Position numbers and translations under genes: made by a program. A model generated the notes under the pieces. It was not told the DNA's origin, searched no databases, and saw only the letters and a program-made list of their open reading frames with translations. This document shows positions 1 through 7,539 of a DNA stretch of 64,000 bases, piece after piece. The DNA lies in contig JAVZJD010000001.1 of the NCBI GenBank assembly GCA_038870975.1, positions 928,001-992,000 of the forward strand. Reading direction: 5' to 3'. The stretch is from Candidatus Bathyarchaeia archaeon (GTDB lineage: Archaea; Thermoproteota; CALKCG01; B24). The first letter of the stretch is position 1. Each line of letters opens with the position of its first letter.

Positions 1-2162
1 AGCGATATAGCATACTGTGTTAAATCAGGTGTATAGGTTATTGTTACAATTCCACTTCCACTTGGTAAGAACACTTCTATGAATGGTACTTTAACTCCAA
101 GCATTTTCATGAGGTTCGAAGGATAGTATGGAACTACTGTAGTAGGCCTCCCATTTACTTTTACTTCAAGCTCAGGATAGTAGACCATTCTAATCTTAAG
201 TTTATCGTCAGGTTTAGCCCCTTTAAACTCTAAAACTATGGTATCTACCGTATAATTTAGAATACGGATTGCTGCGGTTGAATTTTCAATAGAGGCTATT
301 GGATTGAAGCTCTTCATCCTAAAGACTTCGAATAGGCTGTTGGAGAAAACTTTCACGTAGCCGCTCTGTTTAAGAGTGCTTCTAAGTGAAGGGTTTATCA
401 CGGCTATATACGTCACGCCTAATTCCTTAGCCAGTATTTCCAACTTTTCCAAGTCGTTAGCCAATGCATCTGCTTCGATCGATAGGATGCGGTTACCCTC
501 AGTATTAGCTATGGAGTTTGTTATGTATCTGGTTCCATAGATTCCACCTATCGTAGGAGTATTCGACATTAGAGACGCTAAGTAAACATAATGGCTGGGC
601 GGGTTAACTACACCCAAAGTATCCTGAATTAAAATGTACGTGTTTGATTTGTCTGAGCTTTGAATCCACCCTATTAACTCTTCTACTCTAGAGGGTAGAG
701 AGTAGTCGTAGCTCAAGGGGAACACTATACGGCGGTTTAGCGGATGGGCGATATCCGTAGTCTCCAATTGAGCGCTTAGAGACATGCATATGAGAATTAA
801 AGCTAAAACCGAGCAAAGCTTATTGTTCACAGACGCGTTAGACTTCCTTCTTAGAAGACTCTTCAGGGCGTATATGGCTCTTGAAAAGCCTACACCTGCT
901 AAAGCTATTAGCATATATCTCGCGGAAGCCACACATTTACCGAAGGCAAGCTCACTATGGAAAGGTATTATTCTGGTCAAGTCAACCCATCCTATTCTAA
1001 AACTTTCATATCCTGCTCCTATCCATAAGAGCAGTATGGATGAAATCAGCGGATGGTAGCAGTCGTCTTTATAAACAATGTAGCCCACAATTAGGAACGG
1101 TACGGCTAGAATGAGGACTGATGGGTTAACAGTAGTCAGTGATATTGAAAATACGATGTAACCGAGTGTAAGGGAGACAACCCCCAGTTTCTCCTTCAAC
1201 CCTATTCTCGCAGTTCTAGTGAAAATCCATATTCTGAGAGGTATGACTAGTAAAGCTAAAGATATTATAAGCCAAGTATAGGGCTTGAATGTCTCCAAAA
1301 TATCTATGAGAGCCCACTTCCCAATTTCCCACTTAATGTTCCAGATGAGGTTGTGATATATCTTATTGTATTTCATCATTGGAATAAGCCAGAATGACGA
1401 GAAGAGTATGGTAAAGCAAGCTATTAAACCATAGTCTAGAAAAGCTCTCCATAGGATTCTAGCGTTTAAGCTTAAAATCCTCATGACCATTAATACGGCT
1501 ATGGATATGGCTAGGGAGTAGAAAACCATTGGATGAGTCACCATGGTTGAAGCTGAGAAGAACGCTGCCCAAATACAGATAACAAGCCACTTGAATCCTA
1601 AGTCTAAATCTAAAGTGTGTATTATCAAAGCTAAAGCTACGAATGAGAGGACTATTCCCATACTCTGCCCCCACATTCCGACTTCATAGATCTGTTTAAT
1701 CCCAGCGTCAAGCCAAGCACTTTCACCTGGGAAGACTGTTACTGCGATTAGCGCTGCTGCTACAGCTCCAACTCTATCCGCTGTTAAAGCTCTAACGTAA
1801 ATGTAGACCGCAGGAGCGTAGGCTACGTAGACTATATTTAATGCTAGCTTGTAAACCGTGTAGAAGTCTACGAATTTTAGAAGACCATAGGCTAGGATTG
1901 CTACATAACTGTGGGGTCCGCAGTAGTAGAACTGGTTGAGAGGCCAGCCGTACTGGTTTAAAGGGTCCCAGCCTAAGAGTCTGCCCTTAGGTAGGAGGTA
2001 TTTTAGAGTGAGCCATGCCTGGTTTATATAGTTCGGATGGTCCCATCCTATTAATATGCCGGGTCTGTAGAAGGTTTTAATTGATAGAGTTGCGTAGAAG
2101 GCTATGATCGTTAGGGATAGATAGTCCCAGTTTTTCTTTAGAAGGTTGTTGAAACGGCTCAT
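1..2162 (-). CDS. Large polytopic membrane protein, GT-C-type glycosyltransferase (PTPS-related/YfhO-like); runs off window edge
   Basis: Not in ORF track (no stop in window). Manual translation from ATG 2162: MSRFNNLLKKNWDYLSL...GWDHPNYINQAW...LGWDPFNQYGWPLNQFYY... then many TM segments and a soluble C-terminal domain. 'GWDHP' first loop and 'W.P....G.P..QFY' are typical of GT-C/PTPS-related proteins. Confidence 0.75.
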   Translation of the reverse strand, partial: MSRFNNLLKKNWDYLSLTIIAFYATLSIKTFYRPGILIGWDHPNYINQAWLTLKYLLPKGRLLGWDPLNQYGWPLNQFYYCGPHSYVAILAYGLLKFVDFYTVYKLALNIVYVAYAPAVYIYVRALTADRVGAVAAALIAVTVFPGESAWLDAGIKQIYEVGMWGQSMGIVLSFVALALIIHTLDLDLGFKWLVICIWAAFFSASTMVTHPMVFYSLAISIAVLMVMRILSLNARILWRAFLDYGLIACFTILFSSFWLIPMMKYNKIYHNLIWNIKWEIGKWALIDILETFKPYTWLIISLALLVIPLRIWIFTRTARIGLKEKLGVVSLTLGYIVFSISLTTVNPSVLILAVPFLIVGYIVYKDDCYHPLISSILLLWIGAGYESFRIGWVDLTRIIPFHSELAFGKCVASARYMLIALAGVGFSRAIYALKSLLRRKSNASVNNKLCSVLALILICMSLSAQLETTDIAHPLNRRIVFPLSYDYSLPSRVEELIGWIQSSDKSNTYILIQDTLGVVNPPSHYVYLASLMSNTPTIGGIYGTRYITNSIANTEGNRILSIEADALANDLEKLEILAKELGVTYIAVINPSLRSTLKQSGYVKVFSNSLFEVFRMKSFNPIASIENSTAAIRILNYTVDTIVLEFKGAKPDDKLKIRMVYYPELEVKVNGRPTTVVPYYPSNLMKMLGVKVPFIEVFLPSGSGIVTITYTPDLTQYAIS

Positions 2163-2197
2163 TCTAGTTTTTCTCAAGGTGGAGGGTCTTATTAAAA

Positions 2198-3076
2198 CTA
2201 CAACAAGTAGAGGAGAGTAAACACTGAGATGAGCCATATGACAAATACTGAGGTGAACTTCCACTGTTTGAATAATTCGCTTGGGTTGTTTGCTACGGCC
2301 GTGTTTCTCCAAACAGTATTGGTGTAAAACGCTACTAAGTATGTGATGAGTGGTATGGTTAGAGCAAACCCGATCCCATGGACGTTTATACTATAAATTG
2401 TGTAGACTACGATTACCAGGAATGATACTATGAAAAGTCCGCGTCTGATTTGAATCTTCTTGTAGTATTTGAGGGCCTTTCTATGGGTTTCTGCGTTATC
2501 GCCAAGTTCGAGAATCTCTCCGACACGTTTTCCAAAAGACAGCAGTAGGGCTAGTGAAAATATGCCTACTATAAGCCAAGGCGATATTGGTACTGAGATT
2601 GCGTAGGCTCCGGCTATGGCTCTTATAACGTAGTTTAAAGACACATCGGCTACGTCTAAAAGTGCATAATCTTTCAAGGTGAAACTGTAGATTTGTGTGT
2701 TTAGAAATAGCATAATCATACATATCAACACGTTTAGGTTAACGCAGTAGGCTATAGTGAAGCCGGTGGACGCCGTTAAAATACTCAATATTGCCGCTGT
2801 TCTTATGGAGATTAGATTCGATGGTAAAGGGCGTAGTCTTTTAATCGGATGTTTCTTGTCTCTCTCCAAATCTCGTATATCGTTAAGTATGTAATTGGCT
2901 CCTGATGTTAAGCATGCTGATGCAAAGGATGCTATTAGGCTTGGCCATAGGTCTAGTTTAAACATCGATTGTGAGAAGACGGCGGGTACGATTATGAGTA
3001 GGTTTTTATACCACTGGTTTGGCCGGGTCAATGTAATGAACGCTCTAAAGGCTTTTAATCGCCTATTCTTGCTCAT
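2198..3076 (-). CDS. UbiA-family prenyltransferase, decaprenyl-phosphate phosphoribosyltransferase-like
   Basis: RPNQWYKN, YILNDIRDLERDKKHPIKRLRPL, YSFTLK, GKRVGE motifs match the DPPR-synthase subfamily. Start 3076 chosen from GAGGTG RBS (ORF track gives 3103). Confidence 0.85.
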   Translation of the reverse strand: MSKNRRLKAFRAFITLTRPNQWYKNLLIIVPAVFSQSMFKLDLWPSLIASFASACLTSGANYILNDIRDLERDKKHPIKRLRPLPSNLISIRTAAILSILTASTGFTIAYCVNLNVLICMIMLFLNTQIYSFTLKDYALLDVADVSLNYVIRAIAGAYAISVPISPWLIVGIFSLALLLSFGKRVGEILELGDNAETHRKALKYYKKIQIRRGLFIVSFLVIVVYTIYSINVHGIGFALTIPLITYLVAFYTNTVWRNTAVANNPSELFKQWKFTSVFVIWLISVFTLLYLL

Positions 3077-3087
3077 AGTCACCACCT

Positions 3088-4203
3088 CTAGTATGGATTC
3101 CATTCATTGAGTTTGGTATCTTCTGGGTATTTCCCATATGGATATTTAAGCCAAAGCCTTCCCCAGTTGGTTTTAAAGAACCTTCTCATACGTATGCGTC
3201 CGATTGTAGGATACCATATGTAATCGTGGTATACGTTTGACGCTAAAACTGCCAGTTTAAACATTGGACTGTTGAACAATACTCTATCCACCACGGGTTT
3301 TCCTCTTAAAAGCTGGTCGAAGAATATTGCGGGGCTCCGTTTAACTTTAAACTTGAAGTCTATCTTCGCTGGGTCTAAGTCGCCTACTACATCTATTTGG
3401 CTGATGTCTGCACACCCCAAGCCCTTCTCGTGGGCGATGCGTAGGTATTCTATATCCATAGGGTTAAACCCCATGATTCTAGCAGCCACTGAGTCGACAG
3501 CCACTTGGTCTGCCCCTGCTATTAGAATATTTCCTTCTCTAGGTGTCATTGTTCTAGGTCCAGCTCCATCTCCCATCACAGTCCCGTCGACTACTGCGAA
3601 TACTCCTGGGTGTATTTCACGTTGTATTTGGAGAAGGTCGACTAGAACTTCGTGGATGTTTTTATGGGCGTGGTGTCGATATTTTGGGATGAGTCCTCCA
3701 AAGGAGTTTTTAATAGCGCATGTGATCTTTGTATGTCCGTGGGTTTTTAAAGTGGCTAAGTGTAGGATTCCTCTACCTATGAATAGGGTTGGAACTAGGA
3801 TTTTCGTTTTAAATAGTTTATCTAAAGCTAACAGTTGAGACTTAGGCTTGTATTCTATCCATTCGACATTGGGAAGTGGGATGAATTTAACTCCATATTT
3901 TTCGAATATTGGTAGCCATTTATTCAGGTAGGCCCCCTTCCATGGATGGGTTACCACGGTTTGATTTTCGACTGGAAACACTTTAAATCCATCATTAGTT
4001 AAAACCCTTAAAACACCCTCGAGTTGCCATACTGGTGTTGAACAGGCTGGGAAGAAGAGAGACCATGAGAGGTTAAGCTTCAAAACGATTTCTCCTACGC
4101 TTGGGAAATGCCTCCTGTAATCTGCTATTCTCATTAATCGCTCATAGTCTTCAATAACTGTCTCTGGTGAGGTGCGGATAACGGTGACTCTGGGGTTTTT
4201 CAA
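3088..4203 (-). CDS. DUF362 domain protein
   Basis: LKLNLSW..., LKTHGHTKITCAIKNSFGGL, VVDG..GDGAGP, DQVAVDSVAARIMGF motifs; no ferredoxin appendage. Confidence 0.8.
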   Translation of the reverse strand: MKNPRVTVIRTSPETVIEDYERLMRIADYRRHFPSVGEIVLKLNLSWSLFFPACSTPVWQLEGVLRVLTNDGFKVFPVENQTVVTHPWKGAYLNKWLPIFEKYGVKFIPLPNVEWIEYKPKSQLLALDKLFKTKILVPTLFIGRGILHLATLKTHGHTKITCAIKNSFGGLIPKYRHHAHKNIHEVLVDLLQIQREIHPGVFAVVDGTVMGDGAGPRTMTPREGNILIAGADQVAVDSVAARIMGFNPMDIEYLRIAHEKGLGCADISQIDVVGDLDPAKIDFKFKVKRSPAIFFDQLLRGKPVVDRVLFNSPMFKLAVLASNVYHDYIWYPTIGRIRMRRFFKTNWGRLWLKYPYGKYPEDTKLNEWNPY

Positions 4204-4358
4204 TTCGAGGATAATTTTTGAAAATCCTGCGGATAATCGTTTCTCAGGTTTATCGTAGGAAAATCCATCCGTCGATTTACATCCTCGTTTTCTATCTTCG
4301 GCTTAGTGTTTAGCAATTTATAAGTAGTTCTTACTCCGTATTTGTTCGTGGTGTCTCT

Positions 4359-5961: not shown

Positions 5962-7539
5962 TTGCCGTTGAAGGAAGTGCATAAATGGGGTGTTTTTGAA
6001 GCCGATTTTAAAAGTAGTAGTAGCTATGGTGATCCTTTTCGAGATGTGTCTCTCAGCTGTATCTTCAGATCTCCAACTGGTAGAGAGTTTGTTGTCGATG
6101 GTTTTTGGAACGGCGGCTCCACTTGGTGTGTTAGATTCATGCCAGATGAATTAGGCGTCTGGAGTTATAGGACTTTATGCTCCAATAGCGGTGATGAAGG
6201 GCTTCATAATCAGACAGGCTTCTTCGAATCCGTACCATATGAGGGTGAGAACCCCATCTATATCCATGGTGCTTTAAAGCTTTCAGATAATCGGAGGTAT
6301 CTGGTTCATGCCGATGGTGTTCCATACTTTTGGCTTGCCGATACCGCGTGGAATGGTGTTTTGAGGTCGACAGTCGCAGAGTGGTCTAAATACTTAAAGA
6401 TCAGGAGGGAGCAGGGTTTTACGGCTGTTCAGTTTGTAGTGACGCATTGGCGTGGAGGGCCGTGTGATGTTGAACGTGAGACTGCCTACGAGGGTAGAGA
6501 GAGAATAATCAGGTTGAATGTTGAATTTTTCAAACGTATTGACGTTAAATTCTCCATGGTAAATGAATACGGTTTAGTAGCTGCTCCAGTGCTCTTATGG
6601 GCTATTAGAGATGATATTAGCCCCGGCTCAAACCTTACAGATGGAGATGCGCTTTTACTAGCACGCTATTTAGTGGCTAGATATGGAGCATACATCTTGG
6701 TTTGGATATTGGCTGGAGATGGAGACTATAGGGGTGGTAAAGCTGAACGTTGGAAGTTTATTGGAAGAGCCGTCTTCCAAGGTAGATCTAGACATCCAGT
6801 AACCATGCATCCCGCTGGAAGACATTGGCTTCTACCTGAATTTCTACATGAAGAATGGCTGGATATAGTAGGCTATCAAAGTGGACATGGAGTCTCTGAA
6901 GACGACTTGAAATGGCTCTGCTTCGGTCCGCCGAGTAGAGACTGGCTTTTAGAACCGGCAAGACCGTTTATAAACCTTGAGCCGAATTACGAGGGTCATC
7001 TAGCGTATAGGGTATTTAAGCCTATAACTGCGCATATGGTTCGTAGAGCTGCGTACTGGAGTCTTCTAGTGGCGCCACCCGCGGGTGTATCGTATGGAAC
7101 CAATGGAGTCTGGTATTGGAGTAGAAAACCCGAGGTTCCGATTAACCATCCTCATATTGGTGTTGCTAAACCTTGGAGAGAAGCCGTTAATCTTCCAGGT
7201 GCTTGGAGTATGGGTCGGCTTAGAAGGATATTTTCGAAGATACCTTGGTGGGTTCTTCGCCCAGACCATGAACTACTCGTGGAGCAGCCGGGTTTTAAAC
7301 ATGTGGAGCTATTCGTAGCCGCATGTCGAAGTGAAAAAGGTGAAATCGCCTTAATCTATACGCCGGAAATGCAGAGTCTAAATTTAAACCTCAGCCATAT
7401 GAAGAAGCCTTTTGAAGCGGTATGGATAAATCCACGTAGAGAGGAAGAAGTGAGAATAGGTGTATTCTCATGCGACCGTTTAAACCTTACGCCTCCAGGA
7501 CCGGGTGATTGGCTACTAATACTGAAAGCTTTAAGCTAA
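5962..7539 (+). CDS. DUF5060/DUF4038 glycoside hydrolase (apiosidase GH140-like)
   Basis: VRFMPDELGVWSY, PYFWLADTAW, YQSGH, NLEPNYEG, YGTNGVW motifs. Confidence 0.8.
   Translation: MPLKEVHKWGVFEADFKSSSSYGDPFRDVSLSCIFRSPTGREFVVDGFWNGGSTWCVRFMPDELGVWSYRTLCSNSGDEGLHNQTGFFESVPYEGENPIYIHGALKLSDNRRYLVHADGVPYFWLADTAWNGVLRSTVAEWSKYLKIRREQGFTAVQFVVTHWRGGPCDVERETAYEGRERIIRLNVEFFKRIDVKFSMVNEYGLVAAPVLLWAIRDDISPGSNLTDGDALLLARYLVARYGAYILVWILAGDGDYRGGKAERWKFIGRAVFQGRSRHPVTMHPAGRHWLLPEFLHEEWLDIVGYQSGHGVSEDDLKWLCFGPPSRDWLLEPARPFINLEPNYEGHLAYRVFKPITAHMVRRAAYWSLLVAPPAGVSYGTNGVWYWSRKPEVPINHPHIGVAKPWREAVNLPGAWSMGRLRRIFSKIPWWVLRPDHELLVEQPGFKHVELFVAACRSEKGEIALIYTPEMQSLNLNLSHMKKPFEAVWINPRREEEVRIGVFSCDRLNLTPPGPGDWLLILKALS

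Follow-up and report, generated by a model that had tools for sequence, protein, structure and literature searches.

A DUF362-UbiA-GT-C operon in an archaeal genome as a candidate variant of three-component pentofuranose glycosylation systems

The 64,000-nt stretch of a Candidatus Bathyarchaeia archaeon genome analyzed here (the window) contains a compact operon encoding a DUF362 protein, a UbiA-family enzyme, and a large membrane protein. Judged by homology, modeling, and gene neighborhoods, the operon represents a variant of a known pathway, three-component pentofuranose glycosylation, and DUF362 may be the pathway's missing sugar-converting enzyme. We consider it likely that the system combines a lipid-linked pentofuranose donor with a GT-C enzyme, and the best explanation taken as a whole, an operon for extracytoplasmic glycosylation with lipid-linked pentofuranose, appears probable on balance. 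For DUF362 we favor the role of an epimerase, as a tentative proposal, and that it does so with a nickel-pincer cofactor is more doubtful still. No publications on a DUF362-UbiA-GT-C module were found in the literature searched.

Operon layout and gene content

The ORF listing and the junction sequences confirm the tight, co-oriented packing described in the sequence-only reading, with three genes on the minus strand spaced by 11 and 35 nt. The DUF362 gene (3088..4203, minus strand) encodes 371 aa from a TTG start, and the resulting N-terminus agrees with those of aligned homologues. It is followed by the gene for the UbiA-family polyprenyl-phosphate 5-phosphoribosyltransferase (PPPRS/DPPRS-like; 2198..3076, minus strand), which encodes 292 aa from an ATG at 3076. 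This start has GAGGTGGTGA just upstream and leaves the 11-nt gap to the DUF362 stop. If translation instead began at another ATG, at 3103, the protein would have 301 aa and its gene would overlap DUF362 by 16 nt. The gene for the GT-C-fold glycosyltransferase candidate (1..2162, minus strand; 751 aa) starts 35 nt after UbiA and continues beyond window position 1, ending 94 nt past it, so that its final 31 codons and stop lie outside the window (L003:14907-17162 in the genome). A convergent LysR-type gene lies downstream of the operon and a divergent ilvC gene (KARI) upstream. Read from sequence, the 155-bp intergenic region between DUF362 and ilvC (4204..4358) presumably holds the operon's promoter, and an AT-rich element, TTATAAAT, precedes the DUF362 start by approximately 110 nt.

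None of the operon genes encodes a phosphatase, and the genome search returned only weak PHP homologues, located outside the operon. A protein of the LPG_synthase_TM type was not found in the genome, nor, in a flippase search by PF03706, was a flippase of that type found in the operon or genome. The operon also holds no DprE2-like gene. The reported lack of DprE1 near the operon extends to the whole genome, where PF04030 is absent, including the region beyond position 1.

The predicted phosphoribosyltransferase and the GT-C candidate

The second protein contains a UbiA domain (PF01040; E, 9e-22), and its top NCBIfam models are those of DPPR synthase (E, 3e-44), although its score stays under the equivalog cutoffs (152 bits versus 207 to 474). 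The closest solved structure is Rv3806c (8j8j; E, 9e-28), with DGGGP synthase reaching only 3e-6. Using the Rv3806c residues listed in PMC10994848, we observe that 11 of the 12 PRPP- and Mg-binding positions are kept (R22, K28, Y70, N73, D77, K87, R90, Y138, K143, Y157, and K208), the exception being the replaced Q135, which in Rv3806c contacts ribose O3. On this sequence evidence the enzyme is of the Rv3806c/PPPRS type, as previously proposed, and not a DGGGP synthase or quinone prenyltransferase; a grouping with either of the latter was looked for and not found. A conventional prenyltransferase of lipid, quinone, or pigment synthesis, with DUF362 making or modifying the prenyl acceptor and no pentose glycosylation taking place, would agree with the score under the curated cutoffs, the replaced Gln135, and the diverse functions of UbiA enzymes. 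We regard this as very improbable, however, since the enzyme keeps both the Lys/Arg cluster and the residues that bind phosphoribose, neither of which is conserved in UbiA enzymes that transfer prenyl groups (PMC10994848). Also against it, the models for DGGGP synthase, heme O synthase, and UbiA score at least 30 orders of magnitude worse, the genome holds a second, separate and distant UbiA paralogue, and the cluster neighbors are GT-C, GT2, sugar-nucleotide, and flippase-like genes.

Neither Pfam nor NCBIfam gave a match for the 751-aa membrane protein, so its earlier designation as GT-C had been based only on appearance. That designation is now supported at the level of a structural model. 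The AF2 model is confident (pLDDT, 90.0; pTM, 0.91), all 29 of its 29 Foldseek matches at an E value of ≤1e-3 are GT-C enzymes, and VIA-align gives Z scores of 24.7 for yeast STT3, 23.1 for AglB, 20.3 for ArnT, 19.7 for AftD, and 17.7 for AftA. In the modeled architecture, a multihelix membrane domain is combined with a beta-rich C-terminal domain on the extracytoplasmic side and a last transmembrane helix. Asp41 belongs to a GWDHP motif in the first external loop and is near-invariant (at least 90% of set A2). Distant relatives match PF10131 and DUF6541, and in seven metagenome loci relatives of about 30% identity have a PPPRS-like UbiA gene directly after them.

The DUF362 protein and its genomic neighborhood

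The first protein of the operon carries a confirmed DUF362 domain (PF04015; E, 6e-24), with homologues of 55 to 82% identity across phyla and 97 invariant columns. Comparison of its AF2 model (pLDDT, 82.9) with LarA-type racemases, as the sequence-only reading had suggested, returned LarA superfamily members as all five best structural matches (Z, 12.7 to 13.9, versus 5.3 for the next fold). As modeled, DUF362 is thus a very conserved, uncharacterized relative of nickel-dependent lactate racemase with a LarA fold. This superfamily is that of the nickel-pincer nucleotide enzymes (DUF2088/Lar_N; PDB 5HUQ, 9EIA, 7S91, and 9Q3J; Z, 13 to 14), and the DUF362 and LarA families, although distinct in Pfam, share clan CL0471 (PMC11770544).

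Within the invariant motif KTH155GH-x7-K165-x11-HHAH180, the residues His155, Lys165, and His180 align with LarA His174, Lys184, and His200 in an hhalign comparison of low probability (21%, global mode); in the same alignment the second catalytic histidine of LarA, His108, falls on Val83. Single-histidine LarA homologues offer a precedent for this loss. Seven histidines are invariant, and Asp, Glu, and Cys residues are conserved. In more than 100 clusters of DUF362 homologues, a homing-endonuclease intein is inserted exactly at the K153/T154 junction adjoining His155, and the KTH motif is therefore a core site. In place of the LarA C-terminal domain there is a clade-specific helical extension, about 85 aa long and rich in aromatic residues. 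The genomic setting of DUF362 also differs from that of LarA, being lipid-linked sugar synthesis and not 2-hydroxy-acid metabolism, and cofactor binding by DUF362 is putative; to our knowledge, all known substrates of the LarA family are 2-hydroxy acids and not glycosides. DUF362 paralogues often carry 4Fe-4S ferredoxin inserts, and two such paralogues occur in the host genome.

Of 80 loci with a DUF362 homologue, 66 have a UbiA homologue no more than 8 kb away; among the 50 loci whose flanks reach 4 kb or more on each side, 48 do. The arrangement is not due to chance. This conserved linkage bears out the earlier expectation, yet the system proved archaeal only in part: it is present in archaea but not specific to them, the pair spanning many archaeal and bacterial phyla, with bacterial carriers among Aminicenantes, Rokubacteria/Methylomirabilota, Eubacteriales, Chloroflexi, and Thermotogaceae. 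Recurrent partners in the 80 loci are PHP phosphoesterase (34 loci), LPG_synthase_TM (28 loci), and EamA (6 loci), together with PMT_2, STT3-like, and other large membrane proteins and various GT-C genes; their roles match those in the published three-component pentofuranose systems (PMC11127046). Operons bearing PHP typically run UbiA-(GT-C)-PHP-LPG_synthase_TM-DUF362. Thirteen loci contain FAD amine-oxidase-like genes, which often adjoin a second DUF362 paralogue, and genes for NAD epimerase or Gfo/Idh/MocA proteins are further recurrent neighbors. In GT-C-UbiA loci without DUF362, UbiA is usually followed by a mutarotase-like DUF4432 gene, sometimes with a Gfo/Idh/MocA oxidoreductase; by gene content, a sugar-modifying enzyme is what takes the DUF362 position there. 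In one such locus (L109), a PHP fusion follows UbiA.

A proposed pathway and the role of DUF362

Bacterial three-component pentofuranose glycosylation systems were described by Kelly et al. 2024 (PMC11127046), among them Citrobacter youngae O1/O2 with ORF15 (PPPRS-PRP), the MATE flippase ORF14, the epimerase ORF13, and the GT136 GT-C enzyme ORF12. As there, the genes for a UbiA-type polyprenyl-phosphate phosphoribosyltransferase and a GT-C transferase are neighbors, and one more soluble enzyme takes the auxiliary-epimerase position; in related clusters, these are joined by a phosphatase and a membrane protein resembling a flippase. Unlike Citrobacter, the host is an archaeon, the operon lacks a HAD phosphatase domain and a MATE flippase, the GT-C candidate falls outside the described families (no Pfam match and not GT136), and the auxiliary enzyme is a LarA-fold DUF362 protein rather than an SDR epimerase. 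Other lineages have a PHP-type phosphatase and, as the candidate for a flippase, LPG_synthase_TM or EamA. With the mycobacterial decaprenyl-phospho-arabinose pathway (Rv3806c, Rv3807c, DprE1/DprE2, and Emb/Aft), the operon shares a homologous first enzyme with kept PRPP-binding residues and a last enzyme in the fold class of AftD and AftA. It differs in carrying DUF362 instead of DprE1, a DprE2-like gene, and a PAP2 phosphatase, and in a lipid carrier that is presumably dolichyl phosphate.

We propose that UbiA, with its conserved substrate-binding residues, would transfer 5-phosphoribose from PRPP to polyprenyl (dolichyl) phosphate at the cytoplasmic face, giving polyprenyl-P-beta-D-ribofuranose-5-P as do Rv3806c and Citrobacter ORF15. 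The 5-phosphate would then be lost, a step for which many other lineages have a PHP phosphoesterase in the cluster. Soluble DUF362 might next mature the lipid-linked sugar through a redox-neutral epimerization by transient oxidation at C2 or C3, yielding arabinofuranose or xylofuranose, and would thereby serve as a single-protein counterpart in function to DprE1/DprE2 or to Citrobacter ORF13, possibly with nickel-pincer nucleotide as the cofactor. After outward flipping of the donor, for which clusters of other lineages hold LPG_synthase_TM or EamA genes, the modeled GT-C enzyme would pass the pentofuranose to some surface acceptor, which may be an S-layer glycan or a lipid.

The cofactor should be within reach of the host, whose genome encodes LarB, LarC, and LarE and can, by this gene content, make nickel-pincer nucleotide. 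LarA homologues are missing from 13 of the 25 LarC-positive genomes with this DUF362 type, which fits the published view that unknown nickel-pincer enzymes are still to be found (PMC13524815). However, the nickel-pincer epimerase is weakened by the lack of LarC in 25 of 50 genomes with this DUF362 type, mostly small DPANN genomes; no lar genes lie within 8 kb of DUF362 in any of the 80 loci.

DUF362 could instead be the missing 5-phosphate phosphatase, a metal-dependent hydrolase with a histidine cluster that converts polyprenyl-P-ribose-5-P to polyprenyl-P-ribofuranose without epimerization, the GT-C enzyme then adding ribofuranose. The known pathway requires a phosphatase (PMC11127046), and the window operon, like the minimal UbiA-DUF362 pairs of Aminicenantes, Rokubacteria, and Eubacteriales, encodes no further soluble enzyme; the invariant histidines with the conserved Asp, Glu, and Cys could bind metal, and L109 has its PHP fusion after UbiA. 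We nevertheless find this role improbable, because the 34 loci with PHP, typically in the same operon, would make a second phosphatase redundant there. In addition, the conserved His-x9-Lys-x14-His pattern mirrors the residues with which a hydride-transfer enzyme binds its cofactor and carries out catalysis, and we know of no hydrolase with the LarA-like fold of DUF362. Unlikely, though a little less so, is a role in the same pathway as neither nickel-pincer epimerase nor phosphatase: DUF362 could catalyze one step of a two-step oxidation/reduction and leave the other to a separate flavin or NAD oxidoreductase, act as an isomerase or ring-modifying enzyme with a directly bound metal, or be an obligatory noncatalytic partner of UbiA. 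Such roles would accommodate the genomes lacking LarC, the recurrent FAD amine-oxidase-like, NAD epimerase, and Gfo/Idh/MocA genes, the 4Fe-4S inserts of many paralogues, which suggest net redox chemistry in the wider DUF362 family, and the C-terminal extension, whose aromatic residues could dock on the membrane or UbiA. A partner oxidoreductase is not part of the window operon, however, and, against a scaffold, the invariant columns, with their polar residues and histidines, and the intein at KTH favor catalysis.

The operon and its two predicted membrane enzymes

The host genome is archaeal, comprising 1.85 Mb on two contigs, and its closest protein relatives are annotated as Candidatus Bathyarchaeota. 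Three genes are tightly packed here on the minus strand: a DUF362 gene (window 4203..3088 in the ORF listing, 371 aa), a UbiA gene (3076..2198) beginning 11 nt past the DUF362 stop, and a gene for a large membrane protein of 751 aa that starts at 2162, 35 nt past the UbiA stop (L003:14907-17162 in the locus that includes the DNA beyond position 1). The UbiA ATG at 3076 is preceded by the ribosome-binding-like sequence GAGGTGGTGA. These ORFs and junctions agree with the gene coordinates and gaps (~11 and ~35 bp) given by the sequence-only reading, which had also pointed to the genes past position 1. There, the gene for the membrane protein ends 94 nt beyond the window; next come a LysR-type regulator in convergent orientation and then two MoeA and two PurP genes. 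Since the regulator is convergent and ilvC, upstream of DUF362, is divergent, the unit consists of exactly three genes.

At 1.7 kb from the operon, window 5962-7539 (+) encodes a protein with DUF5060, apiosidase-like (PF13204, GH140-type), and collagen-binding-like domains. Apiose is a pentofuranose, and the closeness of this gene to the operon may or may not be meaningful. In the close relatives L005 and L006, genes beside the operon are candidate counterparts by size, order, and orientation.

The UbiA protein matches PF01040 (E 9e-22), and its motif NDIRDLERD, of the N-D-x-x-D-x-x-x-D type, aligns with N73-D81 of Rv3806c in a phmmer alignment. Among NCBIfam models, those for decaprenyl-phosphate phosphoribosyltransferase (E 3e-44) and the HAD-fused relative PRK08238 (E 2e-44) score best, followed by the other UbiA subfamilies at E 6e-15 or worse, of which the generic prenyltransferase PRK12884 ranks highest and the models for heme O synthase, GGGP-type transferase, and 4-hydroxybenzoate transferase rank lower. 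Comparison with solved structures gives E 9e-28 for Rv3806c (8j8j) versus E 3e-6 for DGGGP synthase. The protein falls below the NCBIfam equivalog cut-offs (151.6 bits versus 234 for NF008977, and 142 versus 207 for NF008978). Judged from its sequence, it is a divergent relative of decaprenyl-phosphate 5-phosphoribosyltransferase (DPPR synthase), still far above every other UbiA subfamily.

In Rv3806c, phosphoribosyl pyrophosphate (PRPP) is contacted by a Lys/Arg cluster (R22, K87, R90, K143, and K208), with K28, Y70, and Y157 forming the 5-phosphate site and N73 and Q135 contacting the ribose (PMC10994848). We mapped the substrate contacts described there onto the operon UbiA via the phmmer alignment to 8j8j and observe that 11 of 12 residues are kept (Arg22, Lys28, Tyr70, Asn73, Asp77, Lys87, Arg90, Tyr138, Lys143, Tyr157, and Lys208), the sole replaced contact being Gln135, which aligns with Thr136. 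As the phosphoribose-binding sites are not kept in prenyl-transferring UbiA enzymes (PMC10994848), their conservation here appears to be specific. The NCBIfam models, the structures, and the PRPP residues thus all argue for the DPPR-synthase type proposed from the sequence alone, and in none of them did we see clustering with DGGGP or quinone prenyltransferases.

Pfam and NCBIfam searches of the 751-aa membrane protein returned no match. It has 18 close relatives in a word-indexed database and 155 relatives in an exhaustive HMMER search, a few distant ones touching PF10131 and DUF6541 (PF20176). An AlphaFold model built from 24 sequences (pLDDT 90.0, pTM 0.91) displays a multi-helix membrane domain of the architecture seen in membrane glycosyltransferases of the GT-C fold class, together with an extracytoplasmic domain. 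All 29 Foldseek matches to this model at E<=1e-3 are GT-C glycosyltransferases, as are the top 50 rows of VIA-align, which include yeast STT3 (Z 24.7, 480 aligned residues), AglB (Z 23.1, 453 residues), ArnT (Z 20.3, 464 residues), and the arabinofuranosyltransferase AftD (Z 19.7, 567 residues). Asp41, in the motif GWDHP directly past helix 1, is kept in at least 90% of the 24 sequences at identities down to 18%, and the secondary structure of the model places it as the acidic residue of the first extracytoplasmic loop. The confident model and both fold searches therefore lend support to the third gene as a predicted GT-C enzyme, as first proposed. By Pfam and NCBIfam, a comparison outside which GT136 lies, its sequence appears to belong to no described family.

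Linkage and distribution of the three genes

We surveyed one genome per GTDB species by pattern scan for the highly conserved clade of DUF362 to which the operon protein belongs, and subjected the resulting 80 loci to ORF calling and neighbor clustering. A UbiA resembling polyprenyl-phosphate 5-phosphoribosyltransferase (PPPRS) is present in 66 of the 80 loci, and in 48 of the 50 that have flanks of at least 4 kb on each side; it directly adjoins DUF362 in 32. The linkage of DUF362 and UbiA suspected from this one operon is thus conserved across many distant phyla. Recurrent partners in these loci are a PHP phosphoesterase (34 loci), an LPG_synthase_TM membrane protein (28), an NAD epimerase (17), a GT2 enzyme (14), and a FAD amine-oxidase-like protein (13), with PMT_2, STT3-like, or unnamed 540-570-aa membrane proteins as further partners and an EamA transporter in Aminicenantes. 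The typical order of the euryarchaeal operon is UbiA-(GT-C)-PHP-LPG_synthase_TM-DUF362. Six DPANN loci (L008, L019, L021, L034, L049, and L052) contain a second, more distant DUF362 paralogue (E ~1e-25 to 1e-35), which adjoins a FAD amine-oxidase-like gene no more than a few kilobases from the DUF362-UbiA pair.

Homologues of the operon DUF362 that are 55-59% identical over their full length occur in Methanobacteria, Methanosarcinales, ANME, DPANN, Chloroflexi, Desulfofervidus, and others. Cultured carriers include Methanobacterium oryzae DSM 11106 (L039) and Methanobacterium sp. MBAC-LM (L051). Within the host phylum (301 sampled genomes from 49 families), this DUF362 type is found in the family of the window alone, in five of five genomes plus the window's own, and beyond it in many distant phyla. 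Such a patchy distribution suggests horizontal transfer.

The GT-C gene is also adjacent to UbiA in metagenome relatives of ~30% identity, seven of which have a PPPRS-like UbiA directly after it. The GT-C - UbiA loci of metagenome contigs (L108-L117) are without DUF362, and this link is conserved independently of DUF362. UbiA is followed by a mutarotase-like DUF4432 gene in L108, L111, L113, and L114; L111 and L114 add a gene for a Gfo/Idh/MocA oxidoreductase after it, and in L109 UbiA is followed by a PHP-nucleoside deoxyribosyltransferase-like fusion. The presence of these genes where DUF362 is missing hints at its non-orthologous replacement by other sugar-modifying enzymes. A divergent protein of ~1,800 aa is encoded upstream of GT-C - UbiA in L108, L109, L111, L113, and L114; the one from L109, the sole one scanned, contains GH2 and MacB/FtsX-like domains.

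Comparison with known pentofuranose pathways

Mycobacteria use lipid-linked pentofuranose donors for their cell-wall arabinan, in a pathway that is a drug target, and since 2024 such donors are also on record for Gram-negative O-antigens. The operon shows an archaeal case of this logic; cases from many uncultured anaerobic bacteria are given by the related loci. This type of pathway is already known: in three-component pentofuranose systems, PPPRS is accompanied by a phosphatase, a flippase, a GT-C, and optional epimerases (PMC11127046). The recurrent partners in the DUF362 loci map onto these roles, and as in those systems the PPPRS-like UbiA of the operon adjoins a GT-C on the same strand, across a 35-nt gap. 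In contrast to them, the operon is a reduced version, being without a phosphatase in a genome where PF03706 is absent; related clusters carry PHP. In our full-text literature search, no paper linked DUF362 to UbiA or to pentose pathways, none assigned a function to archaeal DPPR-synthase homologues, and the archaeal setting, this family of GT-C enzymes, and the near-universal pairing with DUF362 were all undescribed.

With respect to the steps missing from the operon, the absence of a phosphatase and of DprE1 noted in the sequence-only reading extends to the surroundings. No phosphoribose 5-phosphatase (HAD PRP domain, PAP2, or equivalent) was found within the operon or in 15 kb of flanking DNA, and the PHP homologues of the host genome are weak (31% identity) and lie away from the operon. 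The operon contains no flippase-like gene, and the genome-wide flippase search, which covered PF03706, was negative. A search of the host genome for the DprE1 type (PF04030) was negative as well. We considered a FAD-linked oxidase ~9 kb past position 1 as a DprE1 candidate; it is of the PF01565+PF02913 type, adjoins ETF genes, and is not DprE1-like. Together with the preceding ETF beta and alpha genes (L003:2681-5852, 9-12 kb past position 1), this oxidase resembles a lactate or glycolate dehydrogenase module of the electron-bifurcating kind.

The role of the DUF362 protein

PF04015 is the only Pfam match of the operon DUF362. An alignment of 25 sequences has 97 invariant columns, seven histidines among them. 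Pfam places DUF362 in the same clan, CL0471, as DUF2088, the N-terminal family of LarA (PMC11770544). Neither single-sequence nor profile searches of solved structures returned LarA, and a genome search with Lar_N (PF09861) found two other genes, the operon DUF362 not being among them. Fold comparison alone found LarA: for a model with pLDDT 82.9, the five best matches among 48,161 chains belong to the LarA superfamily (Z 12.7-13.9, 209-236 residues aligned), and the next fold follows at Z 5.3. The comparison with LarA-type racemases suggested in the sequence-only reading thus predicts a LarA-type fold.

Residues were mapped with hhalign by comparing a broad profile of DUF362 with one of LarA, the LarA numbering being taken from the alignment of a host-genome LarA homologue to 5HUQ/6C1W; comparison of a narrow DUF362 alignment with a single LarA homologue was uninformative. 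In this low-probability alignment, His155, Lys165, and His180, all invariant in the 25 sequences, would correspond to the catalytic His174, the tether Lys184, and the nickel ligand His200 of LarA. The His-x9-Lys spacing is common to all DUF362 paralogues of the host genome, of which there are eight, two with 4Fe-4S ferredoxin inserts. Inteins are usually found in core motifs, and one of ~500 aa with a LAGLIDADG homing endonuclease occurs in >100 homologue clusters of this DUF362 type (P0288-P0399; proteins of 650-940 aa), always at Lys153|Thr154 of the invariant KTHGH, beside His155. It is found, among others, in Woesearchaeota, Nanoarchaeota, Rokubacteria/Methylomirabilota, Binatia, and Asgard archaea, and is absent from the window copy. 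A Rosetta-stone search found longer DUF362 forms to be almost all intein-bearing, with zero fusions to UbiA, phosphatase, or transferase.

We consider it possible, if short of probable, that DUF362 is an epimerase. A LarA-like epimerase that may depend on the nickel-pincer cofactor is favored by the predicted fold, by the conserved His155, Lys165, and His180, by the intein site beside His155, and by the presence of LarB, LarC, and LarE in a genome where a DprE1-type gene is absent. The chemistry fits too: DprE1 and DprE2 together, as two enzymes, transiently oxidize and then reduce a secondary alcohol. Against a LarA-like epimerase, the known LarA substrates are, to our knowledge, 2-hydroxy acids; the C-terminal 85 residues of the model form a helical extension unlike the LarA C-terminal domain; and the second catalytic histidine of LarA, His108, aligns with Val83 in the low-probability mapping. 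The nearly invariant His86 lies three residues past Val83, and single-histidine LarA homologues are on record (PMC12611868). Another catalytic role of DUF362 in donor maturation is unlikely, and a phosphatase role more unlikely still, being weakened by how often a PHP gene shares the operon, PHP being present in 34 of 80 loci.

The cofactor genes larB, larC, and larE all score above cut-off in the host genome, with larB and larC adjacent and divergent (G000:C1:623426-625499) and larE separate (C1:305744-306514); two LarA homologues lie elsewhere (C1:119466-120059 and C2:334957-335538). Of 50 genomes with this DUF362 type, only 25 have LarC. Its absence from the other 25, mostly small DPANN, and from all 80 DUF362 loci, none of which has a lar gene nearby, counts against a nickel-pincer epimerase. 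Among the 25 LarC-positive carriers, 13 have no detectable LarA (Lar_N) homologue, which favors the epimerase reading and fits the expectation that nickel-pincer enzymes await discovery (PMC13524815).

If DUF362 is the sugar-converting step, this would be the first function for a large orphan family, would take lactate-racemase superfamily chemistry past 2-hydroxy acids, and would predict pentofuranose decorations on archaeal surfaces. More doubtful is the full proposal, in which DUF362 would be a new LarA-superfamily epimerase acting on a lipid-linked pentofuranose instead of a 2-hydroxy acid, with a nickel-pincer (or related) cofactor tethered at Lys165; it would replace the two enzymes DprE1/DprE2, so that many anaerobic archaea and bacteria would obtain from it the arabinofuranose or xylofuranose donors with which they glycosylate their surfaces. 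If true, one "missing" nickel-pincer client would be identified in genomes that have larBCE and lack larA. The 13 LarC-positive, LarA-negative carriers are G003, G010, G018, G020, G023, G024, G027, G028, G033, G041, G042, G044, and G047, four of them DPANN genomes of ~1 Mb.
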